Shown: piece after piece, positions 18,619 through 35,583 of the stretch
Layout: every line of letters begins with the position of its first letter
Position numbering within the stretch: the first letter of the stretch is position 1
The notes under the pieces: generated by a model
The model's input: only the letters and a program-made list of their open reading frames with translations
What the model was told of the DNA's origin: nothing
The model's database searches: none
Translations under genes and position numbers: made by a program
Assembly (NCBI GenBank): GCA_038063315.1
Contig: JBBTVI010000008.1
Coordinates: 1 to 62,159 of the forward strand
Length of the DNA: 62,159 nucleotides
DNA from: Patescibacteria group bacterium
GTDB taxonomy: Bacteria > Patescibacteriota > Minisyncoccia > Sungbacterales > HO2-52-23
Reading direction: 5' to 3'

Positions 18619-18716
18619 GAAAAGATTGGGTCTTCCCCTTTTTGAACTTGTAAGAATTCTTTACAAATTGCCGTTTGTTTTCTTGGCCATGGTGTGGAAT
18701 TCCGCGACTGCGGATA

Positions 18717-20180: not shown

Positions 20181-20741
20181 ATGCCTGCCAAAAAGCCGTA
20201 TTGGAACCTCGTCACAGAAGCCGAAGCGTTTGCGCGAACGGTTCACGCGGATCAAATCCGTCCCAACCGTGCTCAGGAACCCTATGTGGCGCATCTTCAG
20301 GAAGTTGCGGAATTGGTGAGAACTTCCGGTGGCTCTGATGAAGAAGTCGCCGCAGCATGGCTCCATGACAGCGTAGAAGATACTTCCGTGACCATCGAAG
20401 AAGTTATTGCCAGATTCGGCGAAGAAGTAGCGAATATCGTCGATGGTATGACCGATCCGCCGGAATTCGATGGATTGCCGACTCTCGAACGGAAAACGCG
20501 GCAAGCAGAACGGGTACGCGTCAAAATCTTCGGGGTCAAGCGGGTAAAGATCGCTGATCAAACGTCGAACCTGCGTTCGGTCGCCGTTGATCCCCCGGTC
20601 AAATGGGATCGCCAGAAGTGCCTTGACTATATCGAGGGTGCAAGACGGATCGCCGTTGGATGTTACGGCATCAGCGCCTATCTCGATTTGGAGTTTCAAA
20701 AAGCATACCGCCGGGCATTTCAGGAGCATGCGCCGCAATGA
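20181..20741 (+). CDS. HD-domain (RelA/SpoT-type) small alarmone hydrolase-like protein
   Basis: PYVAHLQEVAELV and AAWLHDSVEDT (H..HD motifs), IVDGMTD; AAGGAGG Shine-Dalgarno 6 nt before ATG at 20181. Confidence 0.8.
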   Translation: MPAKKPYWNLVTEAEAFARTVHADQIRPNRAQEPYVAHLQEVAELVRTSGGSDEEVAAAWLHDSVEDTSVTIEEVIARFGEEVANIVDGMTDPPEFDGLPTLERKTRQAERVRVKIFGVKRVKIADQTSNLRSVAVDPPVKWDRQKCLDYIEGARRIAVGCYGISAYLDLEFQKAYRRAFQEHAPQ

Positions 20742-20812
20742 AGGAGGCGAAAATGTCCCGATTAAGAGCACCAGCTTCAAGCGGCGCCGCTGTGCGTAAG
20801 TAAGACAAAGTG

Positions 20813-20850
20813 AAAATCCGTCCTTCGGCTATGCTCAAGGCGGATTTTTT
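20813..20850 (+). terminator. intrinsic terminator-like hairpin after the HD gene
   Basis: AAAATCCG(T)CCTT-11 nt loop-AAGGCGGATTTTTT. Confidence 0.5.
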
Positions 20851-20854
20851 GTAC

Positions 20855-21640
20855 TCACCTTCTTTCGCCCGCATCAATCCGGTACCAATCGATATTTCTT
20901 GTGAGATACATTGTTAGCGCAAGAAGCGCAAAAAGCAGGATTGAACCATAAAAGAGAGCGAGGTCCTCAAGCTGAACGATGACATAGAGATAAGAGTACA
21001 AGAGGGCCAAAAGCGCGGAGACGATGGATGCCTTTTTATTCGCCTTCAATACTTTTGCGCTGTAACTTGCGATCAAGCCGATCGTGGCCATGGTCGAAAT
21101 GACATACGCAGGCAGGAAGCCGAATCTTTCCGAGAAAGACAGCAGAAGCAGATAAAAGAGCGCAAGCGCAAAACCGACGAGCAGGTACTGAAACGGATGA
21201 ATTTTTATTTTGCTTAGAATTTCAAATAGGAAGAATGCCAGAAAAGTTATCGCAATAAACATAACGGCATATTTTATCGTCCGGTCTATCTTTGTATAGA
21301 AATCAACGCTTTGGATGAGCGAGACCCCGAATCGCGCATTGAGAATGGTTTGCTGATCCGTTTCTCCGTCAACCCATTGCTGCGGATATGAGCGGCCGAA
21401 GGACGAAATAGACCAGTTTGCGGAAAAACCATCCGTGACCTCTCGCGTATTGGGGAGATAGGCGCCGGTAAAACTCGGAGAACTCCAGCGCGATTTAATA
21501 TCCACTTTTGTTTCGCCTCCGAGAGGCAAAAATTCCAATTGCTCGCTCCCTTGCAAATTAAGCGCATATGAAAAATCAAATGTTTTTTTCGCTGGATCAA
21601 AAGGAACAAATGCGTGAATTCCGTTTAAATATTAAAACCC
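20855..21640 (-). pseudogene. creD: 5'-truncated creD-like gene (C-terminal about 260 codons only)
   Basis: SPSFTGAYLP, TIKYAVMFIAITFLAFFLFE, HPFQYLLVGFALALFYLLLLSFSE match the C-terminal half of CreD; frame stays open upstream to a TAA at about 21641 with no plausible start. Confidence 0.6.
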
Positions 21641-21780
21641 CTACCGTGATCAGCTTTGCGTAGTGGAGTGTTGTGGTTTGAAAGACAGGTTGTTGAGCGT
21701 ATTCATCTTGCATAATCTGGAACGATTTTGGGCGGGATTGGGTTACTTACTGTACGATAGAGGGGCATAACAACGATGAA

Positions 21781-21800
21781 GGCCGCCGTTTACGGCGGCC
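21781..21800 (-). terminator. GC-rich hairpin downstream of the tail-tube-like gene
   Basis: GGCCGCCG-TTTA-CGGCGGCC; weak T tract on the minus strand. Confidence 0.4.
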
Positions 21801-21825
21801 TCTCGGCGTGCATCTCGTTGGTTTT

Positions 21826-22362
21826 TTACCGCCTCTCCCAGTACTCAATACACAGCTCGATTTCTTCCTCGAGCGCGTCGTTGCTTGTGCTGTTCAGCGA
21901 TGGTCCCTTCCAGCGGCATGGCCACGCCTCGAAGAAATTATAACGGACAACTTCCTCCATGTTTGCGCCGATGACGATGATGGAACCGCTCTTTCGTTCG
22001 GTGATGCCCTCAACTACTTTTTTTCGCCACTCCCATAGTTCCGGCGTGTGAAGATTGCCGCGACGGAGGATGATGTTTGAGTAATTCGTCTTGCCCGGCC
22101 GTTTATGCATAATCCGCTCGTTGCCTTCCTGGTATTCTATAACTTCGGTCTTCGATTCGAGGCCGTCAACCTCCTTGAAACCGCCGACGACAACGCCGTC
22201 AATCTCGACGTTGAAATTGTGGATTGTGGTGTAATCGCTCCGATCACTCCCCATTGCTGCGGCTTCCTCGTGAGGATAGAGGGTTCCCGCATAAAAGAGG
22301 AGAGCGCTCATCCCGAGGAGACCTGTGCATAGTACGGCCGTGTGATTTTTTAAGACAATCAT
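21826..22362 (-). CDS. phage tail-tube-like protein (T4 gp19 / contractile-injection-system tube family) with N-terminal hydrophobic anchor
   Basis: FNVEIDGVVVGGFKEVDGLESKTEVIEYQEGNERIMHKRPGKTNYSNIILRRG..ELWEWRKKV..NFFEAWPCRWKGPSLNS...EEIEL matches the family consensus; preceded by a 45-aa segment with TM-like AVLCTGLLGMSALLFYAG. Confidence 0.8.
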   Translation of the reverse strand: MIVLKNHTAVLCTGLLGMSALLFYAGTLYPHEEAAAMGSDRSDYTTIHNFNVEIDGVVVGGFKEVDGLESKTEVIEYQEGNERIMHKRPGKTNYSNIILRRGNLHTPELWEWRKKVVEGITERKSGSIIVIGANMEEVVRYNFFEAWPCRWKGPSLNSTSNDALEEEIELCIEYWERR

Positions 22363-22707
22363 GTTTTTGATGGCAAATTTTTAGCTACTGCCCGCGACCT
22401 TTCACAGATATTTGTATAGCCAAAAATCGGCCGCGTCAAGGAAATGAACAAAACCGGGTTTTTATATAGTGTAGATTCGGACTTAGACCGTTCAACTATT
22501 CGTATTTTTACACCGACTTTGACACGCGAGTGGGATAAAAAAGAAAAGGTATCAGAAAACGATGCAGAGAAAAACGGGGAGCGGGTAACCCCTCACTGAT
22601 GTCATTCTTGCGTCATGCCAAAGGCAGATCCCCGTCTTCGCCTGGCTCCGGCCGGGCAGGTGCCTCCGGCGGAAAAGCGGGAAGCTCGTGTATAATCCAC
22701 AACGCAT

Positions 22708-22733
22708 GGATTCCCGATCAAGTCGGGAATGAC
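22708..22733. repeat. GTCATTCCCG..CGGGAATCC hairpin (HP-3 family), reverse orientation
   Basis: GGATTCCCGATCAAGTCGGGAATGAC. Confidence 0.6.
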
Positions 22734-22809
22734 AATCAGAGCGGTGTGGTTGTTTGCCATCCGGCCAGCTCAGGTAGACATTTCTTCAGGAACTGGCAAG
22801 ATACACGAT

Positions 22810-23466
22810 ATGGAACGGAAACAAAACCTTCGTCTGCTCGGCTCAATATTCGTTATTGCGGTACTCTCATTTTTTCTAAGCTTCGTACTTGCGCCTCTCT
22901 TGGGTTCAGAATCCGTTCGGCGCGCGATCGACTCGCTCGGCTCGTGGGGTCCGCTTGCGCTCGTCGGTTACACAATCCTCGCCCATGTGGTCGCCCCGCT
23001 CGCTGGATCGGTCGGATTTCTCGTCGGCGCGAGCGCATTCGGCGTTCCTCGCGCGGTCCTATATATTTTCCTCGGTAGTATGGTAAGCGCGGTCATTAAT
23101 TTTTCCATCAGCCGGCGCTTCGGCAGGCCATTGGTGCTCCGGTTCGTCGGGCGCAAAACAATGCGCAAGATCGATGAAATCGTCGACATCGCGGGACTTG
23201 GCACGCTTACTACCCTGCGTCTTTTTGGCGTTGCGATTTTTGAACAAACGTCCTATGCCGCAGGACTCACGAATATGCGTTTTCGAACCTTCATGGCAGC
23301 GACCGTTTTTGGAAGCGCCCCACCGCACATCGCGATTGCGTTTTTTTTCGCCAACACCGACTTCGCACTTGGCGGTAATCTTGTATTTCTGCTCGGCGTT
23401 CTTGCGGCTCTTGGCGTCGCAAGCACCTGGCTCGTGAGTGGCCTCCTAAAAAAGAAACCGGTATGA
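22810..23466 (+). CDS. TVP38/TMEM64 (DedA-related) family membrane protein
   Basis: VAPLAGSVGFLVGASAFG, NFSISRRFGRPLV; start trimmed to MERKQNLRLL. Confidence 0.8.
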   Translation: MERKQNLRLLGSIFVIAVLSFFLSFVLAPLLGSESVRRAIDSLGSWGPLALVGYTILAHVVAPLAGSVGFLVGASAFGVPRAVLYIFLGSMVSAVINFSISRRFGRPLVLRFVGRKTMRKIDEIVDIAGLGTLTTLRLFGVAIFEQTSYAAGLTNMRFRTFMAATVFGSAPPHIAIAFFFANTDFALGGNLVFLLGVLAALGVASTWLVSGLLKKKPV

Positions 23467-23490
23467 TATACTTACAGTAAGAAATATACC

Positions 23491-23850
23491 ATGGCAGTCC
23501 TCAATCACACCATCAACACAATACCGAGAGAATCTGCGCCGATCGCCCGTATTGGTCCCAAGCACCAGGTGACGATTCCGAAAGAAATCTTTGACAAGCT
23601 TTGCCTCGATGTCGGCGACTACCTCGACGTGCAGGCAACCGGAGCGACAATTGTCATGACTCCGAAGAAGCTAATCCCGAAGGATCAGGAATGGTTTTAC
23701 ACGAAAGAGTGGCAGGTAAAAGAGCGCGAAGCGGACGAGGCGATTGCCCGAGGTAAGGTCTCCGGTCTATTCACCACTGCTGATCAACTCATGGCGCATC
23801 TGAACTGCGCGTTGGCCCCGCGACCCAACCGCAAGCAAAAACAACGATGA
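23491..23850 (+). CDS. AbrB/MazE/SpoVT-type antitoxin (paralog of 15830..16132)
   Basis: HQVTIPKEIFDKLCLDVGDYLDVQATGATIVMTPKK; C-terminal ARGKVSGLFTTADQLMAHL parallels RAGRVSGPFATVDELKRHL. Confidence 0.75.
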   Translation: MAVLNHTINTIPRESAPIARIGPKHQVTIPKEIFDKLCLDVGDYLDVQATGATIVMTPKKLIPKDQEWFYTKEWQVKEREADEAIARGKVSGLFTTADQLMAHLNCALAPRPNRKQKQR

Positions 23851-24104
23851 GGATTCAGACGACCGCACCCTTTGACCGGGATTTTGCTGTGCTTCCTGTT
23901 ACGATTCAGCAGCGTGTGGAGAAGCAATTCCGTCTCTTGACTGAGAATCCTCGCCATTCGTCTTTGCGGCTCAAAAAGATGGAAGATCCCCGTGATATCT
24001 GGGAAGGACGCGTGACGCAATCCTATCGCTTCACCTTTCAGATTGTCGGCGATCTCTATCTCCTCCGCCGCATTGGCACGCACGACATTCTCCGGCGGCC
24101 GTGA
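23847..24104 (+). CDS. ParE/RelE-superfamily toxin (paralog of 15591..15830)
   Basis: HSSLRLKKMEDPRDIWEGRVTQSYRFTFQIVGDLYLLRRIGTHD; ATGA overlap with antitoxin. Confidence 0.8.
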   Translation: MRIQTTAPFDRDFAVLPVTIQQRVEKQFRLLTENPRHSSLRLKKMEDPRDIWEGRVTQSYRFTFQIVGDLYLLRRIGTHDILRRP

Positions 24105-24163
24105 TACGTTCCGCGCACTTCTCCGATTGCTATAGCCATATTAAAAAAATGCCTCTTTTTTCT

Positions 24164-24188
24164 GTCATTCCCGCGCAGGCGGGAATCC
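24164..24188. repeat. GTCATTCCCGCGCAGGCGGGAATCC hairpin (HP-3 family)
   Basis: near-identical to 16806-16830; upstream flank TATAGCC..AAAAATGCCTCTTTTTTCT resembles the left arm of the 16765 element. Confidence 0.7.
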
Positions 24189-24326
24189 AGGTTTTCTGCG
24201 TCCAAGAGGTGCTCGCATTTTGAATTTCAGGAACTGGAAGTAAAGGAAATATCCGAACACCAAGATTGTAAAAATCAGCAGGACAAATTTGAGGACAAGA
24301 GACGAATAAAAAGTGACAATGTTCAT
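24165..24326 (-). CDS. possible 53-aa hydrophobic peptide (very tentative)
   Basis: hand translation MNIVTFYSSLVLKFVLLIFTILVFGYFLYFQFLKFKM...; its 3' end runs into the HP-3 repeat, so it may be spurious. Confidence 0.2.
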   Translation of the reverse strand: MNIVTFYSSLVLKFVLLIFTILVFGYFLYFQFLKFKMRAPLGRRKPGFPPARE

Positions 24327-24487
24327 TCTATGTTGCGAATTCCAAATCTGTATGGACTGCTGGCATATTTCGCTATTACGCCCATTCTGCTCGCAAATTG
24401 ACCGTAATGCCTTTATACGATAGGTTAAATCACGCTGTAATTAGTTCATACGCGAGAATCGAAAAACTCCTTCATATATTTGCGGGA

Positions 24488-25126
24488 TTAAAAAATCGGC
24501 CGGGTCAGTTCGTGCAAGAATTTATGCATTATTCCCAAAGCAAAAGAGCAATATTCCTTGCTTAATCGTAAGTTATCATTATATATGCGAATTCCATTTT
24601 TCGATGATTTTGCGATATAATTTCTCAGTTTTTTATTGTTGGTCCCCAGTTCGCCACCAGCGTGTGCCAGACAATTACGCACGAGCCCAATCGCGACCAC
24701 TTCATTCCATAGCTCTTCATTTGGCATGACCTTGTTGCACGCTTTCTCTAAATAAATTCGAGCGCGGTGTATACCACTCCCTCTGATATCTTCAAGGTTG
24801 ATTTTGACGGCATTTTTTGCGCACCATTTCCGGCATAATCGATTCATCTTGTGTTCCAAATAACTGAAAAGGGCGATGACAAAAGAAGAGTAAAAAATGT
24901 CATAGCGCTCGCCGAGAAGGTACTTGCTTTCGGATAGTGCATCGTCCGACCGTTGTTTTTCGTCTAGCGACAACTGCTGATCTTCATAACGCTGGTCTGT
25001 GTCCGATTGCTCATTGTCAATTTCGTCGCCGTCGTTGTTCAGTATGGCTTCCAAATCATCCAGATAGGATTCAAAATGATTGAGTTCAAATGAGATTTTT
25101 TCCGAATCAATTTCTATATAAGGCAT
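24488..25126 (-). CDS. HEPN-like protein (putative RNase) with acidic N-terminal region
   Basis: R150-N-C-L-A-H155 (nt 24662-24679) is the R-x4-H / R-N-x-x-x-H HEPN signature in a helical C-terminal half; low-GC gene. Confidence 0.55.
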   Translation of the reverse strand: MPYIEIDSEKISFELNHFESYLDDLEAILNNDGDEIDNEQSDTDQRYEDQQLSLDEKQRSDDALSESKYLLGERYDIFYSSFVIALFSYLEHKMNRLCRKWCAKNAVKINLEDIRGSGIHRARIYLEKACNKVMPNEELWNEVVAIGLVRNCLAHAGGELGTNNKKLRNYIAKSSKNGIRIYNDNLRLSKEYCSFALGIMHKFLHELTRPIF

Positions 25127-25173
25127 ATCACAACCCGTTGAATCAATAATCTGGATGGTAGCCCATCATCGTC

Positions 25174-25261
25174 GTCATTGCGAGCGCCTCCGAGTTTGAC
25201 GAGGTGGCGCGCGGCAATCCAGCATTTTGGATTGCTTCGTCGTCTGACTCCTCGCAATGAC
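25174..25261. repeat. REP-1 element, copy 6
   Basis: GTCATTGCGAGCGCCTCCGAGTTTGACGAGGTGGCGCGCGGCAATCCAGCATTTTGGATTGCTTCGTCGTCTGACTCCTCGCAATGAC. Confidence 0.9.
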
Positions 25262-25526
25262 GTATAGAAGGGCGGTGTTGGAAGGAGCTATGAGGGGGGT
25301 CTAACTCCATAGAAGTTTCATCAGACGACTTTGTTTTTACTAAAAAAATTTCTTTTTCTTCATCGGCATTCGCGGCATGCTGGTGATAATCAATATGACG
25401 AATTTGGTTGGCTGGCGGTATTATAAGCGATGTTAGAATCCTTGTCTTGCACGGAATACGGAATATCGTTGTTTATCGTTTTTCAAAATATTCCCGCCGA
25501 ACTTTTTTGTGGATAATGGACACGGA

Positions 25527-25730
25527 TCAAAGCCCTAAATTGGTATACGTGCTATAGATACCGATAAATTGAGGAACGAGAACTATGAGTCCGATGAGAG
25601 GGAAAACAATCACCGCAACGGAAATCGTGAGGGTCCAGAAAAAGTACCGCCGCATCTGTCGGCTTATTTTCATCTGTTCATCGAATTTCTTTTCAATGGT
25701 GTCTAATTTTTGCAGAATTTCTTGGTCCAT
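25527..25730 (-). CDS. small membrane protein, 67 aa
   Basis: N-terminal charged helix (QKLDTIEKKFDEQMKISRQMRR) then TM hairpin; very AT-rich. Confidence 0.45.
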   Translation of the reverse strand: MDQEILQKLDTIEKKFDEQMKISRQMRRYFFWTLTISVAVIVFPLIGLIVLVPQFIGIYSTYTNLGL

Positions 25731-25745
25731 AGTGTGTGGCTTAAT

Positions 25746-26201
25746 CTAGTTTTTAATTGTTGCTAAAAGGACTAATGCAAAAAGATTTAAAATAACCATT
25801 CTCGCGACCAAATGATTTCTTTGAGTATCTAGAAAATCTATATAGTCTCCGAAACCATGCCTATGGCTATCGTAGTGCGGTTTCGCTCCGCCTTCGGTAA
25901 CTCCTCGCCCCTTAAAACTCTCACTTAAATATTTTTCTCCCAATACAAGATATTGTTTCGCGGTGATAATTTTCCCCTCAACCTGTTTAACTTTAAACCA
26001 GTAAAAAAGAATTAAAGCTACTATAAACACTACTTTAAAACCGATAGGTGAAAATAAGAACACAAGAAGCCCAATAAGTATAAAAACTATCTCCTCAAGA
26101 TCTATCAAACTAGCACGAACAGAAAAATCCTTATTCCAATCTTCTTTGTACTTGATTACTTTTTCAATGGAATATTCTTTGTATTGATCTTGTTGCTCCA
26201 T
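25746..26201 (-). CDS. membrane protein, 151 aa, three predicted TM helices
   Basis: IVFILIGLLVFLFSPIGFKVVFIVALILFYWF and C-terminal MVILNLFALVLLATI; very AT-rich. Confidence 0.55.
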   Translation of the reverse strand: MEQQDQYKEYSIEKVIKYKEDWNKDFSVRASLIDLEEIVFILIGLLVFLFSPIGFKVVFIVALILFYWFKVKQVEGKIITAKQYLVLGEKYLSESFKGRGVTEGGAKPHYDSHRHGFGDYIDFLDTQRNHLVARMVILNLFALVLLATIKN

Positions 26202-26238
26202 AAAATACTCTTCGGAGTCCGAACTTATCTTAGGCTAA

Positions 26239-26311
26239 CTGCCGGGCTAGGGCTCGAACCTAGAGTTTCCTGCTCCAAAGGCAGGCGTGTTGCCAATTAC
26301 ACTACCCGGCA
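26239..26311 (-). tRNA. tRNA-Gln (anticodon UUG), copy A
   Basis: hand fold: TGCCGGG/CCCGGCA acceptor (U1-A72), GTGT-AATTGGCA-ACAC, CCTGC-CTTTGGA-GCAGG, CTAGG-TTCGAGC-CCTAG, discriminator G; identical to 31743-31815. Confidence 0.85.
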
Positions 26312-26321
26312 ATAATGCGCT

Positions 26322-26661
26322 TTACGCGGATAATTTTTCTTGCGGCGATTGTTCGGACTGATCCGCCAGGATTTCCAAAATCGTTATCTCAAGAGGGAGT
26401 TGGGGAATGGGAGAGGCGCGGAAGCGCTGGAGGTTGTCGGTGATCGTAAGCACCGCGCGGGTAAGGATGGGTTCGTCCAAATGAGGGAGATTTTTTGCGA
26501 TGCAGTCGCGCTCCGCAGGCAGCATATCCTCCGCAAACCGCGGAGCCGCTGCGGCATCGAGGTGCAGAAGGAGTGCGTGGCGGAAATAGCGGAGGAGCAG
26601 GCGGAGAAGCGCTGTGGTGTCGCTACCCGCGTCGGCAAGTTCCTGAACAAGCGCGAGCGCT
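26322..26661 (-). pseudogene. dnaX: dnaX 3' fragment (last about 113 codons, no 5' part)
   Basis: translates to ALALVQELADAGSDTTALL...MLPAERDCIAKNLPHLDEPILTRAVL...QEKLSA, matching the C-terminus of 31826..32947; upstream in-frame stop 5 codons beyond the repeat edge. Confidence 0.8.
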
Positions 26662-26723
26662 GGGGTATTTTTGTTCTATCGTTCCGTTATCGGGTGATCC
26701 AACGCTTCTTATTTTTGCGTGGG

Positions 26724-28847
26724 TTAGGATGCAATCGGAAGCGTAAAATGAAACGTTGTCCCCTGGCCTTCTTTCGATTCAAACCAAATTGTTCCGCCGT
26801 GCGCTTTCACAATATTGTTTGCAATAAACAAGCCAAGACCCGATCCATTCGGTTCGATCTTTATCGCATTTTTTCCTCGAAAGAATTTCGTGAAAATGCG
26901 TTCTTGCTGGTTTTCGGGTATGCCGATGCCGGTATCGTGCACCGAAACGGTTATCTGCTCTTGCGCCTGAATTGCCCGGATTTTAGTCGTGCCTTTCGAC
27001 GTATAGCGCATCGCATTGTCGAGTAAATTCTTCAGAACCATCTCGATGGCTTCCGTGTCGATGAGAACGTCCGGCAACGTTTCCTTCGGCGCTTCAAAGA
27101 ACAATCGTCTTTGGCCCTTGTGGTGTCCGCCCTCCGAGAGGTTTTTTACTACCGATGCAATAAGATTGGTTATACTTGTCTTTACCGGCTTGTATACGTA
27201 TCGGCCCTCTTCAAGCCGTGCTACGTCAAGTAGATTGCTGACCAACGACACCATTTTTTCAATAGAGCTGAACGCGGTTTTTATCATGCGCGCCTGTTCG
27301 GAATTCAGGGCTCCCGCTTCTCCGGAATCAAGAATATGTATGCTCCATTTCAACGCGGTCAATGGAGTGCGGAGTTGATGCGCCGCAATGGAAACAAATT
27401 CTATTTTTGAGCGCTCAAGGTGTTTTTCTCGCGTAATATCATGCAGTATGATCATCAGGCGTTTTTGCTCCTGGCCAAATTCAACGGGTACCGCAGTAAT
27501 TTCCACGGTCATGTCGTCGCGCATGGGGAATTCCTTTCGGAATACGGCTTCCGGGTTGGTTCCGAGCAGTCGAACGAGGTTCCCAAATAACGGCAGGGAT
27601 GTGAGCGTTGCAATCTCTTTTCCGGCAATGTTGCGTTCTTCAATGCCAAAGATTTTTACGACTTGCGGATTTATCAGTTCTATTTTCCCCCGTTGATCAA
27701 ATACCAATAATCCGTCGCCAATGGCATGAATAATACTCTCGGGAAGTTTACGCGCTTCAACCAAACCGTCGGTCATGGCATTAAAGTTTTCGGCCAATTT
27801 CCCGATTTCGTCTTTAGACGAAACTTGAGCGCGGCGAGTAAGTTCTCCCCTTGCAATAACGCCCGCGGTTTGAGTCAATAAGGCGACCGGTCGTATCACG
27901 TTGCGATTGATGATGATAAAAATTGCCAATGCGGCCAAGATACTCAGGATGACCGATACGAGCGCAAGATCCCGTGCTTCTCTGAGTGCCGGCGTAAAAG
28001 CAATATCCGTGGGCGTTTCTATGACGAGTCTCCATCCGTCCCCTTTATAGTTCAGGTATCCGAGTTGTCGCGTATGAGAGGCCAAAATTGAAACACTTGT
28101 TTTTGACGAAGGGAATATGCCGGACGTCTCACGCTCTTTTAATGCACTCTGGACAACCGGATCAAGCCGGTCGTCCCGCAATAAATCATTCCTGTTTTCG
28201 TCGGCATCCGAAGATCCGATCAGAAATCCTTCGGCGTTGTACAGGCGGGCTTTTTCAACGAGTTCCTCGAGAATTTCGGACACCACCGCCCAGCTGAAAT
28301 TTCCAATAACCACCCCCACAACGGGACGACCAAGTTCTCGACTTCGCACCGGCGCAGCAAACAAAATCGTGGGTTTGCCCGTTTCGTCGGCCATGACGAG
28401 ATCGGAGTAGTACACTTTTCTTTGTAGCGCCTGTTCAATGACCGTGTTTCTCTGCAGATACTCTGAGACGAATTTCCCGATCTCCTCTTTTTTAGTAGAG
28501 ACGACTACGACGCCGCTCGTATTCACCGCGTATAAAAGATCCCAGGGGCCGGTAAGGATGGTATTCTCATGAAATTCGCGCGCCAAATTTTCGTTGACGA
28601 CGGATTCTCCCTTCATAAAAAAGGACTCCAAGCTGTCATTCGCCGCAATAGTTGAGATGTCGAGATACCGCTCGTACAACAAGCGGTCAATTTTATCCAT
28701 GGTTTGGCGGGTGACTTCCAGCTGGTTATCTCCAATGGCCGTTTCGAGGCCTGATTTAGCGGTGGTAAACACAAAAAATCCTATGGCCCCGGCGGTAAGG
28801 ATCGCGGTAACAAAAATGCTTAACGAGATCTTCTGCGTTAGCATCAT
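26724..28847 (-). CDS. sensor histidine kinase (extracytoplasmic Cache-like domain, HAMP, PAS, HisKA, HATPase_c)
   Basis: two TM helices flanking about 270 aa; HAMP KDEIGKLAENFNAMTDGL; H-box AAHQLRTPLTAL; LLDNAMRYT, DTGIGI, GSGLGL. Confidence 0.85.
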   Translation of the reverse strand: MMLTQKISLSIFVTAILTAGAIGFFVFTTAKSGLETAIGDNQLEVTRQTMDKIDRLLYERYLDISTIAANDSLESFFMKGESVVNENLAREFHENTILTGPWDLLYAVNTSGVVVVSTKKEEIGKFVSEYLQRNTVIEQALQRKVYYSDLVMADETGKPTILFAAPVRSRELGRPVVGVVIGNFSWAVVSEILEELVEKARLYNAEGFLIGSSDADENRNDLLRDDRLDPVVQSALKERETSGIFPSSKTSVSILASHTRQLGYLNYKGDGWRLVIETPTDIAFTPALREARDLALVSVILSILAALAIFIIINRNVIRPVALLTQTAGVIARGELTRRAQVSSKDEIGKLAENFNAMTDGLVEARKLPESIIHAIGDGLLVFDQRGKIELINPQVVKIFGIEERNIAGKEIATLTSLPLFGNLVRLLGTNPEAVFRKEFPMRDDMTVEITAVPVEFGQEQKRLMIILHDITREKHLERSKIEFVSIAAHQLRTPLTALKWSIHILDSGEAGALNSEQARMIKTAFSSIEKMVSLVSNLLDVARLEEGRYVYKPVKTSITNLIASVVKNLSEGGHHKGQRRLFFEAPKETLPDVLIDTEAIEMVLKNLLDNAMRYTSKGTTKIRAIQAQEQITVSVHDTGIGIPENQQERIFTKFFRGKNAIKIEPNGSGLGLFIANNIVKAHGGTIWFESKEGQGTTFHFTLPIAS

Positions 28848-28860
28848 GAATGTTGGATTG

Positions 28861-29886
28861 TCATTTCAAAAATTTTCGTGTAAATACCTTGTTGACGTCA
28901 AACTCGGTTTCGAGCAATCCGTTTGAGCGCATGGCCTCGTATAACGTTTGCCACCGAACAAACTGTATGTTTCCGAGTTTCTCCGGGCCGGAGGGTTGAA
29001 TCAAGGGAATGCTTTTCTCCAGGATAAATTTTTCAAGCTCCCGATCCTTATACGTTTCGTTTGTCACATACCGCATGGTAATGTCGACCGCTTCGTCGGG
29101 GTAGGCGATCGCGTGTCTCCAGCCTTTGAGCGTCGCCTCTACAAACCTCAGTACGACATTCGGGTCCTCGTCAATGAGACGCTGCGTCGTTGCCAAGAGA
29201 TCTCCGTTCATTGCAAAGCCAAAATTTTCAGGGAAAATGAGGTTGTACTTCAGACCGCGCTTGTCGAATAAATATACCTGGTCGGTGCGGTAAAGATTGA
29301 TTACGTCGGCGCGCTTGGCGACGACATCGTCTACCTCGGGGCCGGTTTCAAATCCAATGGGCTTTATCGTGACTTCGCTTTTATCGATCCCGAAGGTTTT
29401 GAGCAGCGCGGGGTAAATAATTTTTCCGTCATCCGTGTCTCCTTTAATGCCCAGCACCTTGCCCCGGAAATCCGCGGGAGTTTTGATGCCGCTTTCTTGC
29501 AGGGTAAGCATGGCCCACGAAGCGTCCTGATAGATCACCGCGAGCGCCCGGAAATCGAGTCCCCTGTCGACCGCTTTTAACAATTCAATGGGATTTAACA
29601 TGGCAAAATCGTCTTTTCGTTCGGCAAAATCCTTTTCCTGATTTCCCGCAAAATCCCACTCGCGAATCGTAACGTCCAAACCGGCATCCCGGTAAAACCC
29701 CTTGTCTTTGGCAACATACAGCCCGGCAAATTGCGTTTGGCCAAGCCATTTTAAGCTGATGCTTACTTTCTTGAGTTCTGTGGGTACGCGCTGATCTCCC
29801 CTTCCCGTATTGTTTTGCCGCCATACCAATAGCATCCCTCCAACCACCAGGACGAGAAAAACCCCGATAAGAATTTTTTTGTTCAT
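28861..29886 (-). CDS. NMT1/THI5-like (NitT/TauT-type) periplasmic substrate-binding protein
   Basis: signal anchor; SLKWLGQTQFAGLYVAKDKGFYRDAGLDVTI. Confidence 0.8.
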   Translation of the reverse strand: MNKKILIGVFLVLVVGGMLLVWRQNNTGRGDQRVPTELKKVSISLKWLGQTQFAGLYVAKDKGFYRDAGLDVTIREWDFAGNQEKDFAERKDDFAMLNPIELLKAVDRGLDFRALAVIYQDASWAMLTLQESGIKTPADFRGKVLGIKGDTDDGKIIYPALLKTFGIDKSEVTIKPIGFETGPEVDDVVAKRADVINLYRTDQVYLFDKRGLKYNLIFPENFGFAMNGDLLATTQRLIDEDPNVVLRFVEATLKGWRHAIAYPDEAVDITMRYVTNETYKDRELEKFILEKSIPLIQPSGPEKLGNIQFVRWQTLYEAMRSNGLLETEFDVNKVFTRKFLK

Positions 29887-29934
29887 ATGCGTTATTGCTC
29901 TTACGAATAAACCGTCGACTTTTTTAGATGATCA

Positions 29935-30933
29935 CTACCGCAAAAATTCCGTAGTGTATGTGGCGCTGATGTCCTTATCTTTGGAAATGACCCCGTACTG
30001 ACGCAATAGGGCGTAGGTGCGGTTCCATTTCGAAAAGTTAATCTGACCGATTTTCGTTGCCGAGGAGCGTTTCACCAATACCGCCGTCTCTTCGAGCATG
30101 TCCTGCTGAATTTCTCGCGTTGAATCCTCTACGTATTGCATGGTTATGTCCACCGCTTCTTCCTGATTGGCTACTGCCCATTCCCAGCCCTTTAAGGTTG
30201 CTTGCACAAATGCGCGTACCAGCTCATGCTTTTCATCAATCGTCCTCTGCCTCGCGATGAGCACATCCGCATAAATATCCACGCCGAATTCTTCAGGTTT
30301 TATGAGGTTGACCGCGTATCCCATTCGTTCTGCCGCCTTGGGTTCATTCGTTCTGAAGCCTGGCCATACGTCAACTGCTTTTTCAAGTAAGGGAGTAATT
30401 TCAGAAGTGTCGGCCGGCACTTCAATAATGTTCTTTTGATCAATGCCTAAGTTACGAAGCATCGCAATATATGTGTAGTAGGTCCCGGTGCCCTTTCGTA
30501 CACCGACCCTTTTACCGATAAAGTCCTGAGGCGTCTCGATGCCGGATGATTTGAGTGCAAAGTAGACGACCGGATTTTCTTGATAAATTGCTGCGATCGC
30601 CTTAATCGGTTTTCCTTCCGAAACGGCAACCAGTAGATCATCGGCTCCGGCGACGCCAAATTCCGCTTGTCCGCCGAGGACGTTGGCGATAGGGGGTCGA
30701 TCCGGTCCGCCGCGTTCAATGTGTACATCCAAACCCGCAGCTTTATAGAAGCCCTTTTCTTTCGCCGCATAAATTCCGGCAAACTGCGCCTGATGCTTCC
30801 ACTTTAATTGAACGGTGACCTTTTTTGGCTCGCGTGCATAGTGAGCGCGTTGCCGTTGCAACGTAAAGGAAATAATGAATGCGAGTATGGCCGAACATCC
30901 TATGATGAGTACCCAAAGAGTTTTTTTATGCAT
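29935..30933 (-). CDS. NMT1/THI5-like substrate-binding protein (paralog)
   Basis: QLKWKHQAQFAGIYAAKEKGFYKAAGLDVHI. Confidence 0.8.
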   Translation of the reverse strand: MHKKTLWVLIIGCSAILAFIISFTLQRQRAHYAREPKKVTVQLKWKHQAQFAGIYAAKEKGFYKAAGLDVHIERGGPDRPPIANVLGGQAEFGVAGADDLLVAVSEGKPIKAIAAIYQENPVVYFALKSSGIETPQDFIGKRVGVRKGTGTYYTYIAMLRNLGIDQKNIIEVPADTSEITPLLEKAVDVWPGFRTNEPKAAERMGYAVNLIKPEEFGVDIYADVLIARQRTIDEKHELVRAFVQATLKGWEWAVANQEEAVDITMQYVEDSTREIQQDMLEETAVLVKRSSATKIGQINFSKWNRTYALLRQYGVISKDKDISATYTTEFLR

Positions 30934-30954
30934 AGTATATTGACGATAGTTTTA

Positions 30955-31707
30955 TTATACCACACGCGTTTGTTTGGCGAGAGTAAATACCGCTTTTCCC
31001 AGTGCGAAGCAATCACGGTAGATATACCCCTGGGGTATGGCTATACCAACGGGAGCAAAGCATTTTTCATCTTGTATGTTCAGGCGGCTCGTTTCAAAAG
31101 CGGCCTTGAACTGTGGCATCGTTTGAACCGCGTTTTCGGTAGACATGAGTTCGTCTCCGAATCCAAGCTGTAGAGGAACAATTTCATTCTTGAGCTTTTC
31201 GAACGCATTCGAGTTTTCTTCCCGTAAATAAACGATATTCGTCGCGATATAGAAACTTCCGCCGAATCTCAAAATTCGAGCGACCTCGTGCACGATGTGA
31301 CGTAACTCGTTCTCTCGAAAATACATGATGCTGAAGCTGGAAAGCGCCAGATCGAATGATTCGTCCGGAAAAGGCAAGTCCCTCATATCTCCTTTATGGA
31401 TGGATAGGCGCCGTGACCTTGTGCGTCGCTCTTCTGCTTTTGCGAGCTTAATCATATCGCTGCTTGAATCAAGGCCCACAACATTTCGAGCTCCGCGCGC
31501 GTAAAGATTTTTGCTCCATCGCGCATCTCCGCAGCCGATTTCAATCGCATCTTTTCCTTTCAAGCATTTGGGCAGTATCATTCGGAGGTATTCCAACACT
31601 TCGGCGTCAATCCCTCCGGTTGCATCCTTCTTACCGCGTTTGGCTCGTTTATAGTATTGAGCAATTTTATCGCTCGCGTAAAGGCCCGCGAGGTGTTTGT
31701 TTTTCAT
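30955..31707 (-). CDS. class I SAM-dependent methyltransferase
   Basis: motif I AIEIGCGDARW, VVGLDSSSDMI, post-I/II acidic residues. Confidence 0.8.
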   Translation of the reverse strand: MKNKHLAGLYASDKIAQYYKRAKRGKKDATGGIDAEVLEYLRMILPKCLKGKDAIEIGCGDARWSKNLYARGARNVVGLDSSSDMIKLAKAEERRTRSRRLSIHKGDMRDLPFPDESFDLALSSFSIMYFRENELRHIVHEVARILRFGGSFYIATNIVYLREENSNAFEKLKNEIVPLQLGFGDELMSTENAVQTMPQFKAAFETSRLNIQDEKCFAPVGIAIPQGYIYRDCFALGKAVFTLAKQTRVV

Positions 31708-31742
31708 AGCATTAACTCCTCTCGGTAGGGGTCACAGTTTTT

Positions 31743-31815
31743 CTGCCGGGCTAGGGCTCGAACCTAGAGTTTCCTGCTCCAAAGGCAGGCGTGTTGCCAA
31801 TTACACTACCCGGCA
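31743..31815 (-). tRNA. tRNA-Gln (anticodon UUG), copy B
   Basis: identical to copy A. Confidence 0.85.
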
Positions 31816-32165
31816 ATAATGCGCTTTACGCGGATAATTTTTCTTGCGGCGATTGTTCGGACTGATCCGCCAGGATTTCCAGGATCGTTATCTCAAGTGG
31901 AAGCTGGGGAATGGGAGAGGCGCGGAAGCGCTGGAGATTGTCGGTGATCGTGAGCACCGCGCGGGTGAGGATGGGCTCGTCTAAATGCGGGAGATTTTTT
32001 GCGATGCAGTCGCGCTCCGCGGGCAGCATATCCTCCGCAAACCGCGGAGCAGCGGCGGCGTCCAGACGCAGAAGGAGCGCGTGGCGGAAATAGCGGAGGA
32101 GCAGGCGGAGAAGCGCTACGGTGTCGCTACCCGCGTCGGCAAGTTCCTGAACAAGCGCGAGCGCT
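31743..32165. repeat. 423-bp direct repeat, copy B (tRNA-Gln + 3' end of intact dnaX)
   Basis: see 26239-26661. Confidence 0.9.
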
Positions 32166-32947
32166 CCGGCCGGGTTTTTCTCTGCAATGAGGGAAAACAA
32201 TTTTTGCGCGGCCTCGCTTTTGGGAAGGCCGAGGATATCCTCCACTTCCGTTGAGGTTATTTTTTTGTCTTCCGCGGCCATGATTTGCCCGAGAATGCTT
32301 TCCGCGTCGCGGAGGGACCCCTCTCCGGCGCGCGCGATCAGATGCGCGGCCTCGGGCGCGAGCGCAACTTTTTCTTTTTTCGCGATTGCGCCGAGGCGGG
32401 AGGCGACCGCGGAAATCGGCGGTCGGCGGAACGTATAATGCTGGGTGCGCGAGACGATTGTCGCGGGCATTTTTTCAATCTCGGTTGTGGCGAGGATGAA
32501 GACCACATGCGTCGGGGGCTCTTCCAGCGTTTTGAGGAGCGCATTGAAGGCCTCTTTGGTCAGCATGTGGCATTCGTCCACGATATATGTTTTGAAGGAG
32601 CCGCCTGGGGGAGCGAAGCGCGCGGATTCGCGGAGCGCCCGGATTTCGTCAATGCCGCGGTTGGAGGCCGCGTCAATCTCGATCACGTTGAGAGCGCGAT
32701 TGCCGTTGAACTCTGCGCACGAGGCGCAGGAATTGCAGGGTCTCACTGCACCAGTACAGTTGAGCGATTTTGCGATGAGGCGAGCAATCGTGGTCTTGCC
32801 TACGCCGCGTGGCCCCGCGAAAAGATACGCGTGCGCGACGCGGTTCGTCTTGATGGCGTTGGTGATTGGCCGGACGATATGGTCCTGCCCGACGATATCG
32901 TCAAATGCCATCGGGCGATATTTCCGGTAAAGGACGAGATGGTTCAT
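31826..32947 (-). CDS. dnaX: DNA polymerase III subunit gamma/tau
   Basis: Walker A GPRGVGKTT, Zn module CNSCASCAEF, YIVDECHMLT, SRTQ. Confidence 0.9.
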   Translation of the reverse strand: MNHLVLYRKYRPMAFDDIVGQDHIVRPITNAIKTNRVAHAYLFAGPRGVGKTTIARLIAKSLNCTGAVRPCNSCASCAEFNGNRALNVIEIDAASNRGIDEIRALRESARFAPPGGSFKTYIVDECHMLTKEAFNALLKTLEEPPTHVVFILATTEIEKMPATIVSRTQHYTFRRPPISAVASRLGAIAKKEKVALAPEAAHLIARAGEGSLRDAESILGQIMAAEDKKITSTEVEDILGLPKSEAAQKLFSLIAEKNPAGALALVQELADAGSDTVALLRLLLRYFRHALLLRLDAAAAPRFAEDMLPAERDCIAKNLPHLDEPILTRAVLTITDNLQRFRASPIPQLPLEITILEILADQSEQSPQEKLSA

Positions 32948-34061: not shown

Positions 34062-34070
34062 TCCTGAGAA

Positions 34071-34146
34071 ATGAATTATGGGATATGTATTATGAATTAT
34101 GGAAAATTCCGAACCCATAATTCATAATTCAGGCTCCATACTTCAT
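34071..34146. repeat. AT-rich palindromic element, copy b
   Basis: ATGAATTATGGGATATGTATTATGAATTATGGAAAATTCCGAACCCATAATTCATAATTCAGGCTCCATACTTCAT; 9 nt upstream of gap start. Confidence 0.8.
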
Positions 34147-35186: not shown

Positions 35187-35420
35187 TCAGAGATTCAATA
35201 ATTCCTTGATCCGCGGCTGGTCGAATCCGATGGTGAGTTTGCCGTCTATGTCTATTACGGGAACGCCCATCTGGCCGGATTTGGCGATCATGGCGTCACG
35301 CGCGGCAGAGTCGGCCACAACATCCTTTTCGGTATAGGGGACGTTATTTTTATCAAAAAAGTCCTTCGCCATCTTGCAGTAAACGCAGGTCGGAGTTGTG
35401 TAGATGGTAACGTTGGCCAT
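35187..35420 (-). CDS. glutaredoxin/NrdH-like small redoxin
   Basis: 77 aa; TPTCVYCKMAKDFF (CxxC), GVPVI. Confidence 0.8.
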   Translation of the reverse strand: MANVTIYTTPTCVYCKMAKDFFDKNNVPYTEKDVVADSAARDAMIAKSGQMGVPVIDIDGKLTIGFDQPRIKELLNL

Positions 35421-35449
35421 GAAGATAGAGTAAAGAAACTATTCCCGGT

Positions 35450-35544
35450 GTCATTGCGAGCGCCCCGAGTCTGTCGAGGGCGCGTGCGGCAATCCAGGGT
35501 TTCTGCGTATGGATTGCTTCGTCGCTGCTGCTCCTCGCAATGAC
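35450..35544. repeat. REP-1 element, copy 7
   Basis: GTCATTGCGAGCGCCCCGAGTCTGTCGAGGGCGCGTGCGGCAATCC...GGATTGCTTCGTCGCTGCTGCTCCTCGCAATGAC. Confidence 0.9.
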
Positions 35545-35583
35545 GACTACGACGTGTTACGCTACCTTTAAGATATTCGTATT

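Follow-up and report, generated by a model that had tools for sequence, protein, structure and literature searches.

A duplicated dnaX 3' end and tRNA-Gln flanking a sensor-kinase operon in a groundwater Patescibacteria genome: a candidate scar of recombination between related lineages

Anatomy of the locus

The window (the whole 62,159-nt stretch of DNA that was analysed) comes from an uncultivated groundwater Patescibacteria genome. Two direct copies of a 423-bp segment, each with a tRNA-Gln gene and the 3' end of dnaX, lie on either side of a four-gene operon. The features are listed below in order of position.

24105-26237, minus strand: low-GC left flank (40% GC) adjoining tRNA-Gln copy A; an alternative occupant of the position downstream of tRNA-Gln
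26211-26223, minus strand: terminator-like hairpin and T-rich tail (TTCGGACTCCGAA then GAGTATTTTA), just downstream of tRNA-Gln copy A
26239-26661, minus strand: repeat copy A; intact tRNA-Gln(UUG), 9-10 nt spacer and dnaX' (headless dnaX, final 112 codons and stop)
26239-26377 (copy A) and 31743-31881 (copy B), no strand assigned: identical block of 139 nt; tRNA, spacer, final 17 dnaX codons and stop
26378-26615, minus strand: divergent tract; 21 substitutions, giving 17 synonymous codons and 2 replacements
26661-26662, no strand assigned: putative illegitimate joint, where dnaX' residue 262 meets a 62-nt tail downstream of the kinase stop
26724-28847, minus strand: cargo gene 4, sensor histidine kinase of 707 aa (dCache-HAMP-PAS-HisKA-HATPase; Pfam)
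28861-29886, minus strand: cargo gene 3, NMT1/SsuA-like solute-binding protein of 341 aa (Pfam)
29935-30933, minus strand: cargo gene 2, NMT1/SsuA-like solute-binding protein of 332 aa (Pfam)
30955-31707, minus strand: cargo gene 1, class I SAM methyltransferase of 250 aa, starting 35 nt after tRNA-Gln copy B
31743-32165, minus strand: repeat copy B; intact tRNA-Gln(UUG), spacer and the 3' end of functional dnaX
31826-32947, minus strand: intact dnaX, short gamma/tau form, 373 aa (Pfam DNA_pol3_delta2, DNAX_ATPase_lid and DNA_pol3_gamma3)

In an ungapped comparison the copies were 95% identical over 423 bp with starts 5504 nt apart, reproducing the coordinates and gapless alignment of the preliminary description. 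Identity is bounded at 26239/31743 and 26661/32165, and the sequence beyond both bounds is unrelated between the copies. ARAGORN called an intact minus-strand tRNA-Gln(UUG) gene in each copy, at 26238-26312 and 31742-31816. Read by hand, the canonical 73-nt tRNA terminates at discriminator G73, which falls on 26239/31743, and CCA is not encoded; the 3' end of the tRNA is indeed the exact start of the repeat, as had been claimed. The inner edge corresponds to DnaX residue 262, in domain III and within Pfam DNA_pol3_gamma3 (230-371). This is an arbitrary breakpoint inside a domain and thus fits the expectation for an illegitimate joint. The headless dnaX' of copy A starts at this residue and contains a 67-aa ORF annotated by NCBI (MEK7560454.1).

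The methyltransferase gene is preceded by GAGAGGAG, and no terminator lies between the gene and tRNA-Gln copy B. The nearest homologues of the cargo kinase are 50% identical and of equal length. The four-gene operon, with its order kept, is found in other Parcubacteria, where it occupies unrelated places in the chromosome and has no repeats on its flanks; this indicates that the cargo is ordinary clade DNA rather than a self-mobile element. The low GC of the cargo described earlier was confirmed (48.3% against about 55% in the core); it does not serve as a mark of foreign DNA, since a kinase locus at 52-57 kb is also at 47%. Pfam scans of large ORFs covering most of the window gave no integrase, resolvase or transposase, and the precomputed Pfam lists for 15.7-42.9 kb gave no integrase or recombinase, in agreement with what had been noted before. 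Gaps between the cargo genes are at most 62 nt, and so leave no space for a decayed integrase.

On the other side of copy A, the left flank has three ORFs (151, 67 and 212 aa), none with a family match, and one copy of the REP-like element of this genome (25166-25280). No hairpin comparable to that downstream of tRNA-Gln copy A was seen at the equivalent position after copy B. The interval from tRNA-Lys to tRNA-Gln contains further broken genes, namely a CreD C-terminal half and a lone tail-tube gene. Two adjacent kinase paralogues in this genome share a 663-nt stretch at 100% identity.

Divergence between the copies

All 21 substitutions are confined to 26378-26615. The inner 46 nt (26616-26661) are identical between the copies, as is the block at the tRNA end, whose length, put earlier at about 138 nt, is corrected here to 139 nt. 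In the dnaX frame 19 codons differ, 17 of them synonymously and two by replacement (T/V at residue 277 and H/R at residue 294), a recount that agrees with the earlier hand translation. The substitutions split 2/2/17 over the three codon positions, far from the even spread that the preliminary description had named as evidence against its reading. By the Nei-Gojobori method dS was 0.24 for the full 112 codons and 0.29 when restricted to the 95 divergent ones, with dN of 0.012-0.014 and dN/dS of about 0.05. When the 21 substitutions were placed at random, none of 20,000 placements exceeded 14 synonymous changes (18 were observed).

A headless fragment cannot have felt such selection, and the divergence is therefore older than the junction. 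To judge from the substitution pattern, purifying selection was strong while the copies diverged; they must have been functional genes in distinct but closely related lineages at that time and have come together only recently. Divergence in different genomes while both genes were functional had already been argued, and the dN/dS bears this out. At most ~3 replacement-site changes in ~209 sites can have accumulated, which likewise points to a recent event.

Identity runs 66 nt past the tRNA, taking in the 9-10 nt spacer, the stop codon and the 17 codons before it. By our own arithmetic, the probability of such a run is roughly 0.002-0.03 at a pS of 0.24. A stretch this improbable suggests an exchange or conversion tract at the tRNA end, as a crossover inside the repeat predicts, and the 139-nt block is thus a candidate crossover or gene-conversion tract. 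The block may conceal one true difference, at 26295/31799, where the window has A at both positions and a second assembly of the same population has G at both.

Independent assemblies and related loci

Contigs from independent assemblies of this aquifer population break exactly at the edges of the repeat: L082 stops at 31743, L084 and L085 begin at 31772, L086 begins at 31797, and L088, L089 and L091 are similar. An independent metaSPAdes contig (L098) and a Logan contig (L091) each contain the kinase tail joined to dnaX', and both haplotypes were recovered in other assemblies (L098 and L082). Together, the independent breaks, the reproduced joint and the two haplotypes indicate that the repeat is real, and the assembly artefact that had been named as a possible objection is not what the independent assemblies show for the repeat itself. 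Gene order is identical in three long contigs. The 139-nt block is the sole node common to both copies at k=55; coverage is 5-6x (from the contig names), and assembly R2 left the block unresolved with all four arms unjoined. The path order through the block (copy A to the left flank, copy B to the operon) rests on the assemblers' choice.

The order dnaX then tRNA-Gln is kept in all six Patescibacteria loci scanned for tRNAs. In two other Sungbacteria (L099 and L100), DNA homology likewise goes no further than the 3' end of tRNA-Gln, and the accessory genes beyond it differ, so the lineages appear to carry differing accessory DNA downstream of the tRNA. None of 10 other dnaX loci from Patescibacteria shows the repeat-flanked arrangement. 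At 90% identity this DnaX clusters with nothing but the 67-aa fragment, and the next relative is 66% identical; the donor lineage is absent from public data, and the cluster search gave no fragment-only homologues of dnaX'.

Possible routes to the duplication

Homologous recombination on the dnaX'-tRNA-Gln segment is the most economical explanation of the locus. Our best reading, a tentative one at somewhat less than an even chance, is that this is an insertion-duplication scar from recombination between two closely related Sungbacteria-like lineages (dnaX dS about 0.25-0.3), with a circle integrated by a single crossover. One lineage would have carried the methyltransferase-NMT1-NMT1-kinase operon downstream of tRNA-Gln and the other the low-GC left flank. 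A circle of dnaX' (3' 340 nt), tRNA-Gln and the operon would have formed, closed by an illegitimate joint from 62 nt past the kinase stop to dnaX codon 262, and would have passed into a cell belonging to the other lineage. There, a single RecA-type crossover between the homologous dnaX'-tRNA-Gln segments (Campbell-type integration) would give the product dnaX-tRNA-Gln-operon-dnaX'-tRNA-Gln-left flank, the 139-nt identical block being left by the crossover and heteroduplex, or by later gene conversion. No site-specific recombinase would be involved, and recombination between the 423-bp repeats could release the operon again. We infer the circular vehicle, the resident side, the place of the crossover and any excision. 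Excision had been expected to leave an empty-site or a circular junction, and neither was present in any contig carrying the flanking proteins. The cargo had also been taken as the incoming piece, but the structure is symmetrical, and copy A with the left flank could equally be incoming. Patescibacteria have been shown to be naturally competent and to carry out homologous recombination (PMC10633639), and a Campbell-type circle has been published as a model for Rhs tips (PMC2935791).

Other readings were weighed as well. An assembly that misthreaded the 139-nt node, or that mixed strains, could have merged a dnaX(B)-tRNA-Gln-left flank arrangement with a separate operon-dnaX'(A)-tRNA-Gln molecule or strain. 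Coverage of merely 5-6x, a node longer than k=55, the four arms left unjoined in assembly R2 and the evident collapse of the node (both copies A in one assembly, G in another) are compatible with this, but we regard it as improbable: the joint of kinase tail and dnaX' occurs in independent assemblies under any path, so that a dnaX fragment attached to the operon exists in either case; the integrated order is common to three long contigs; the alternative adjacency is in no contig examined; and a 5.5-kb circle without a replication gene is unlikely to persist. Scarcely credible is that the segment was duplicated inside a single genome and the copies then diverged where they lie, with dnaX' kept by selection, e.g. 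as an expressed 67- or 88-aa peptide. The ATG-initiated, NCBI-annotated 67-aa ORF does persist in copy A, and the 663-nt kinase identity indicates that this genome duplicates or converts segments locally. However, the synonymous-only pattern continues upstream of the start codon of that ORF, a dS of about 0.27 beside an unchanged 139-nt block is unlike in-place divergence, and no fragment-only homologues are known; residue 294, K in 59 of 60 relatives, is H in copy A and R in copy B.

Site-specific integration of an element bearing a surrogate dnaX 3' end and tRNA-Gln, with the crossover in the 46-nt core at 26616-26661 and the integrase lost or supplied in trans (a CIME-like defective element), would account for the perfect 46-nt block at the inner edge; the anatomy resembles icd/icd' of e14 (PMC6379469), and tRNA genes are classic integration targets. 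It is nevertheless improbable, given that the scanned ORFs contain no integrase and the 5.1 kb has no space for a remnant, that other genomes carry the cargo, an operon of housekeeping type, at non-mobile sites without repeats, that the window holds no further partial tRNA-Gln att-like copy, and that none of the 10 other dnaX loci repeats the arrangement. A serious alternative, only a little less likely than the circle, is homology-facilitated illegitimate recombination (displacement) with linear DNA of a sister lineage, taken up e.g. by natural transformation. One end would be homologous (upstream, in or near dnaX, if the operon came in; in the left core if the left flank and copy A did) and the other joined illegitimately at 26661/26662. 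The 3' end of the resident dnaX, with tRNA-Gln and the island, would be pushed downstream rather than deleted. This gives the exact product observed, the arbitrary joint in dnaX domain III included, in a single event and with no circle. Natural competence and the recombination of linear DNA are known from Patescibacteria (PMC10633639). Experiments in several bacteria have demonstrated the mechanism, which has also been invoked for T6SS effector-immunity arrays of like anatomy (PMC5361080, PMC3240628), and the broken CreD half and lone tail-tube gene suggest that illegitimate joints are common in this interval. Against it, such events occurred in experiments at frequencies orders of magnitude below those of ordinary recombination (PMC5361080), and an exchange outside the repeat does not predict the 139-nt block, so that later gene conversion is needed, which is plausible given the 663-nt kinase identity. 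The identical block mildly favours the Campbell-type circle. A circle, for its part, has to be formed in an additional step and must find a way into the cell, and if the block arose by later gene conversion, as the kinase identity allows, the block would give no preference for a circle over linear DNA. Thus, of the Campbell integration first proposed, recombination on the homologous segment stands, and the circle does not stand as the sole vehicle, because a linear fragment yields an identical product.

By either vehicle the locus would be a fresh scar of integrase-free gene exchange, an event of known type, here in a little-studied group. In suicide-plasmid single crossovers and lambda dgal heterogenotes (the Campbell model), an insert lies between two homology arms, the arms are chimeric and the structure is unstable by recombination between them. 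The topology here is the same, but in a natural, uncultivated bacterium, with no plasmid backbone or replication genes and with a homeologous arm (95% identical). Genomic islands linked to tRNA genes, their tandem accretion and CIME-like defective elements are also similar, with an edge at the tRNA 3' end, two tRNA-containing direct repeats and variable low-GC DNA downstream. Classical tRNA islands, however, duplicate just the tRNA's 3' portion, in most cases tens of nucleotides long, and carry or borrow a tyrosine integrase, whereas here the whole tRNA and 340 nt of the upstream gene are duplicated and the copies are 5% diverged. The e14 and phage 21 insertions in icd likewise duplicate the 3' end of a host gene, one copy completing the gene and the other remaining as a pseudogene fragment at the far end of the insert; in e14 the 163-bp duplicated end is supplied by the element and brings a conservative amino-acid change (PMC6379469). 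Those prophages have their own integrase and a defined core, in contrast to the chromosomal-type operon here, for which no integrase was found and whose longer, 423-bp repeat includes a complete tRNA.

Also matching in anatomy are the 'C-terminal displacement' arrays of Rhs genes (Jackson et al. 2009, PMC2935791), where an intact gene and new module are followed by a displaced 3' fragment and the old module, and where a circle bearing a piece of the conserved gene was proposed to integrate by a single homologous crossover without an integrase. The duplicated ends there are polymorphic toxin tips, in an array with toxin/immunity pairs; here a tRNA and homologous alleles of an essential replication gene take their place, with one displacement and a sensor-operon payload. 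Orphan immunity-gene arrays of the Vibrio cholerae T6SS have been explained by homology-facilitated illegitimate recombination (Kirchberger et al. 2017, PMC5361080), the experimental basis of which is cited there and in PMC3240628. As in our linear alternative, DNA of a related strain enters without an integrase, anchored by homology in a conserved gene upstream and joined illegitimately at its other end, and the old module is moved downstream and not lost. The ancestral effector is replaced in Vibrio, whereas nothing is lost here, and the locus retains a 423-bp homeologous duplication with the whole tRNA and an identical block at one end of the repeat.

Two divergent copies of the dnaX–tRNA-Gln segment

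A repeat search of the window returned two direct repeats of 423 nt whose starts are spaced by 5504 nt. In a base-by-base comparison the ungapped identity runs from 26239/31743 to 26661/32165 and the sequence is unrelated on either side; local alignment past the inner joint gave a chance-level 21-nt match alone. The features are:

26239-26661, minus strand: copy A, a headless dnaX fragment (dnaX') followed by tRNA-Gln
31743-32165, minus strand: copy B, the end of the intact dnaX followed by tRNA-Gln
26238-26312 and 31742-31816, minus strand: intact tRNA-Gln(UUG) genes (ARAGORN)
31826-32947: intact dnaX, 373 aa, with Pfam domains DNA_pol3_delta2, DNAX_ATPase_lid and DNA_pol3_gamma3; its 3' end is copy B
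26661/26662: the joint at which dnaX' meets the tail of a kinase gene

As read from the sequence, the mature 73-nt tRNA ends at discriminator G73 (26239 or 31743) with an unencoded CCA, so the repeat edge is the exact mature 3' end of the tRNA. No other, partial copies of tRNA-Gln exist in the window. Copy A begins at residue 262 of DnaX, within the gamma3 domain (residues 230-371). The copies are 95% identical, with all 21 substitutions confined to 26378-26615 and perfect runs of 139 nt at the start and 46 nt at the end. Read in frame, the substitutions fall in 19 codons, 17 of them changed synonymously and two by replacement (T/V at residue 277, H/R at residue 294). The preliminary description of the repeat, i.e. 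its coordinates, the edge at the tRNA 3' end, the 21 substitutions and the 17 synonymous codons among 19, is correct in every element.

That description had called for an exact alignment with dN/dS. By the Nei-Gojobori method, dS is 0.24-0.29 and dN 0.012-0.014, giving a dN/dS of 0.05. An even spread over codon positions, which was named there as evidence against the reading, is not what we see (2/2/17), and the 18 synonymous changes observed compare with at most 14 in all 20,000 random placements of 21 substitutions. Purifying selection cannot act on a headless fragment, so the synonymous divergence (dS about 0.27) must have arisen in the working dnaX genes of two lineages; this bears out the earlier proposal that the copies diverged as functional genes in different genomes. 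Since then the fragment has gained no more than about 3 replacement-site changes, which makes the junction young relative to the lineage split. We also tried to polarise the copies by their two amino-acid differences. Residue 277 varies among relatives, whilst residue 294 is K in 59 of 60 relatives, R in copy B and H in copy A, a weak hint that copy A may be the relaxed copy.

The repeat in other assemblies of the population

The window proteins occur letter-for-letter in the metaSPAdes assemblies ERZ1292639 and ERZ1292634 (ENA) from Hainich groundwater well H51. Identical proteins are also present in an NCBI Patescibacteria MAG and in the Logan assemblies of two H51 runs, ERR3858130 and ERR3858132, and the window gene order is common to three long contigs. 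In the replicate assembly R2, the region is broken into four contigs that end at the repeat edges and overlap the repeat by k-1 or k bases. Across the assemblies the contig ends are:

31743: end of contig L082
31797 and 26293: starts of L086 and L088, respectively, 55 nt into the repeat
31772 (L084 and L085) and 26268 (L089), starts, and 26632 (L091), end, of Logan contigs: 30 nt into the repeat

Breaks at repeat edges are the behaviour of a true repeat in a de Bruijn graph. The R2 contig L098 independently contains the kinase, the joint and 252 nt of the A haplotype, and L082 contains the B haplotype; each haplotype is phased by k-mers, since the identical runs between substitutions are all <55 nt. 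The repeat edges and the joint between kinase tail and dnaX' are seen again in R2, in R3 (another assembly of the same aquifer population) and in the Logan assemblies. This reproduction in independent assemblies argues against the duplication being an assembly artefact, the objection that the preliminary description had raised against itself.

The pairing of arms across the shared 139-nt node (26239-26377, matched by 31743-31881) depends on the assembler; the junctions themselves are reproducible. In the window, copy A is paired with the left flank and copy B with the operon, as in an integrated unit. The opposite pairing would amount to an empty site plus a 5.5-kb circle, and neither the empty site nor the circle junction appears in any contig examined. 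Together with the joint in independent assemblies, this makes a mis-threaded assembly an unlikely source of the arrangement. At 26295 and again at 31799 the window reads A, whereas the R3 assembly (L081) reads G, and the node has visibly been collapsed; the site is D-loop position 17 of tRNA-Gln, U versus C. On the simplest reading, this position probably does differ between the tRNA copies, and one of the two alleles was retained in assembly. The 66-nt identity between the tRNA and 26377 is unaffected by such a collapse, because differences there would only shift the point at which the paths merge. The case illustrates how a short shared node can mask differences between copies and leave the order of repeats to the assembler.

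The cargo operon and the DNA beyond tRNA-Gln

Four co-oriented genes fill the cargo (26662-31741), with no gap above 62 nt; they encode a class I SAM methyltransferase, two NMT1/SsuA-like solute-binding proteins and a dCache-HAMP-PAS-HisKA-HATPase kinase. The methyltransferase gene starts 35 nt past the tRNA-Gln of copy B, with GAGAGGAG just before it and no terminator between; a terminator-like hairpin lies downstream of copy A only. A promoter scan, which is uninformative for this phylum, gave no consensus matches for a tRNA or operon promoter in the dnaX 3' end. The same four genes are found in the same order in other Parcubacteria, with a kinase of equal length and ~50% identity. These homologous operons occupy unrelated chromosomal sites (by recG in one genome, by NYN/TIM/PGK in another), and no flanking repeats or nearby tRNA-Gln were found at them. 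The cargo is thus an ordinary operon of the clade rather than a self-mobile element, and there is no sign of a recurrent cassette. The lower GC noted previously is real (48.3% versus about 55% for the core). As a sign of foreign origin, however, GC or GC skew is weak, since another kinase locus in the window (52-57 kb) is equally low at 47%; low GC here is a mark of accessory DNA in general and not of this insertion.

Pfam scanning of the cargo and of large ORFs covering most of the window returned no integrase, resolvase or transposase families. This agrees, for the ORFs scanned and including precomputed Pfam lists, with the preliminary statement that no integrase or recombinase is present. 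The locus therefore lacks, among those ORFs, the tyrosine or serine recombinase in or beside the element that defines integrase-type tRNA-linked islands. It does have an edge at a tRNA 3' end (G73) and a repeat of the tRNA 3' segment; however, where such islands repeat that 3' segment, the repeat here spans the whole tRNA and 340 nt upstream. The same element was not found at the same target elsewhere: at each of 10 other Patescibacteria dnaX loci there is one tRNA-Gln only and dnaX' is absent, these being the only informative loci in the survey because most non-Patescibacteria loci gave no tRNA.

On the other side of copy A, the left flank (24105-26237) has 40% GC, with a GC3 of 0.30 in the p151 gene, and its ORFs gave no family matches, including in PHROGs and NCBIfam searches. 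It carries one copy of the genome's REP-like palindromic element (25166-25280) and so did not come in very recently from a distant source. The interval from tRNA-Lys to tRNA-Gln is littered with accessory and broken genes:

15482-15553, plus strand: tRNA-Lys, left boundary of the accessory interval (15554-24104)
15830-16252: MazE-like antitoxin ORF
16951-18618: PIF1-type helicase with an HTH_40 domain
20855-21556: CreD, C-terminal half only (model positions 203-428)
21826-22362: lone T4 gp19-like tail-tube gene
23491-23850: second MazE-like antitoxin ORF
23847-24104: weak ParE-like ORF

The order dnaX then tRNA-Gln is conserved in 6/6 Patescibacteria loci scanned with the tRNA tool. In two other Sungbacteria (L099 and L100), which conserve the gene order upstream of dnaX, DNA homology stops at the tRNA-Gln 3' end and the genes that follow differ (NYN and patatin in one genome, HicA among others in the second). 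With this clade-wide synteny break, the outer repeat edge needs no special explanation, and the tRNA-Gln 3' end downstream of dnaX is marked as a clade-wide hotspot for variable DNA. A VirD4/TrwB-like coupling-ATPase ORF (T4SS-DNA_transf, DUF87) lies at 59513-61981 of the window; the homologous DUF8128/T4SS-like gene is 1.3-2.7 kb upstream of dnaX in L099 (2864-5281) and L100 (4266-6680), and the local gene order of this genome is thus a different one.

Among DnaX relatives the nearest come from Sungbacteria, at 57-66% identity (best match 60% among GTDB species genomes, 66% in a search of 5.8 billion proteins), and the 90% cluster holds the protein itself and a 67-aa fragment only. The nearest species genomes have kept only dnaX-tRNA-Gln and so lie too far off to tell which of the islands is ancestral. 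JGI metagenomes, scanned for exact patterns, and IMG/VR, scanned for the joint, gave nothing, and the parental or donor alleles, the empty site and the circle are absent from all collections searched.

Routes to the present arrangement

Every model would have to combine an illegitimate joint at 26661/26662 with a single homologous interaction, placed within dnaX-tRNA-Gln or beyond it. On the dnaX side the joint falls in domain III, and on the kinase side 62 nt after the stop; homology does not continue across it, and comparison with copy B, in place of the parental alleles, shows no bases shared immediately at it. The repeats are of arm length (423 nt), their 95% identity suits RecA and no recombinase is found in the ORFs scanned, all as expected of a single crossover. 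The 139-nt identical block could be the trace of a crossover or its heteroduplex, should the two arms be reciprocal donor/recipient chimeras. One homologous junction and one illegitimate junction at an arbitrary position are likewise what displacement produces.

We mildly favour, as a tentative choice, the Campbell-type integration put forward in the preliminary description, in which a circle would have carried dnaX'-tRNA-Gln-operon; a model of circle integration has been published for Rhs C-terminal displacement (PMC2935791). This model yields the exact product and the identical block fits it, but the product is not diagnostic, since homology-facilitated illegitimate recombination of a linear fragment (either operon plus copy B, or left flank plus copy A) gives exactly the same one. 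The linear route is a credible possibility: natural competence has been shown in the phylum (PMC10633639), and the mechanism has been put forward to explain T6SS effector-immunity arrays that share this anatomy (PMC5361080). The evidence that bears on the choice is the identical block, which reaches 66 nt past the tRNA (spacer, 17 codons and stop). Given the synonymous divergence measured, identity of this length would, by our arithmetic, arise with a probability of roughly 0.002-0.03. Exchange outside the repeat, as in the linear model, does not predict this tract, whereas a crossover with heteroduplex inside the repeat does, hence the preference for a circle. Later gene conversion would also yield the tract and has a possible precedent in this genome (a 663-nt stretch of 100% identity between two adjacent kinase paralogues), which keeps that preference mild.

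Site-specific integration that supplies a surrogate gene end, as for e14 at icd/icd' (PMC6379469), matches the anatomy but is quite improbable here, given no integrase in the ORFs scanned, no room for a remnant and no recurrence. Duplication in place, with selection acting on the fragment, sits badly with the histidine of copy A at residue 294, which is K in 59 of 60 relatives and R in copy B, and is very improbable. A bolder extension of the Campbell-type model, which we consider doubtful, is that the 5,504-bp unit (tRNA-Gln, methyltransferase, two NMT1 genes, kinase and dnaX') cycles as a live cassette that has a homology arm and no integrase. In this view the 423-bp repeats would let host RecA switch the unit between circle and integrated form, and natural transformation would spread it among Sungbacteria lineages. 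The assembly graph, in which two paths enter and two leave the 139-nt node, allows for circles and empty sites in the aquifer. If true, this would be direct evidence for circular intermediates, so far hypothesised for displacement arrays.

The locus thus has the testable features of both displacement arrays and insertion-duplication, which it resembles; it is not a new kind of system. What is unusual is a repeat that unites a whole tRNA with part of an essential replication gene, arms with a readable divergence clock, and the Patescibacteria host. It would not surprise a specialist and would make a good teaching example. Patescibacteria are almost entirely uncultivated and gene exchange in them is poorly documented; to our knowledge, natural recombination events in the group have rarely been recorded. 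Here there is a clean natural record in which an accessory sensor operon probably moved between lineages about 5-7% apart in DNA, by homologous plus illegitimate recombination alone, beside an essential gene and a tRNA. The 423-bp repeats also provide a concrete target for testing RecA-driven gain and loss in metagenomic reads.

Several other repeats are present in the window. Two adjacent HisKA_7TM kinase genes (7238-8878 and 9413-11599) flank a response regulator and share 663 nt at 100% identity (8205-8867 versus 10914-11576) over their N-terminal 7TM parts; the remainder of both genes is unalignable as DNA. Either this stretch was recently converted or duplicated, or it is a further node collapsed in assembly. 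A second kinase pair (52243-53784 and 54790-56193) shares ~630 nt at 85% identity (53066-53693 versus 55556-56183), with a near-identical core of ~360 nt (53323-53682). With 4476-5402 and the cargo kinase (26724-28847), there are six histidine-kinase genes in 62 kb, which seems dense for a Patescibacteria genome. A REP-like palindromic intergenic family (GTCATTGCGAG...GCAATCCA and relatives) occurs across the window in both orientations, often clustered, and the window repeat search placed none of its elements inside the cargo. A second, short AT-rich family (ATTATGGGATATGTATTATGAATTATGG and its inverted copy) forms hairpin-capable intergenic pairs, one of them just upstream of GAPDH.

REP-like copies: 1-100, 1570-1700, 3706-3754, 5457-5635, 7078-7215, 25166-25280, 35419-35562, 45064-45250, 47968-48116, 49958-50153, 51242-51354, 56943-57129, 59354-59512, 62067-62159
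AT-rich repeats: 1489-1525, 34067-34146, 48506-48592, 51751-51832

In Parcubacteria bacterium Gr01-1014_48 (L095), three tandem 39-nt repeats (ATCCCTCCCACCCTCCCTTTATTAAAGGGAGGAGTCCAT) at 12181-12347 lie downstream of the homologous kinase, with a related copy 3.5 kb off at 15806-15892.
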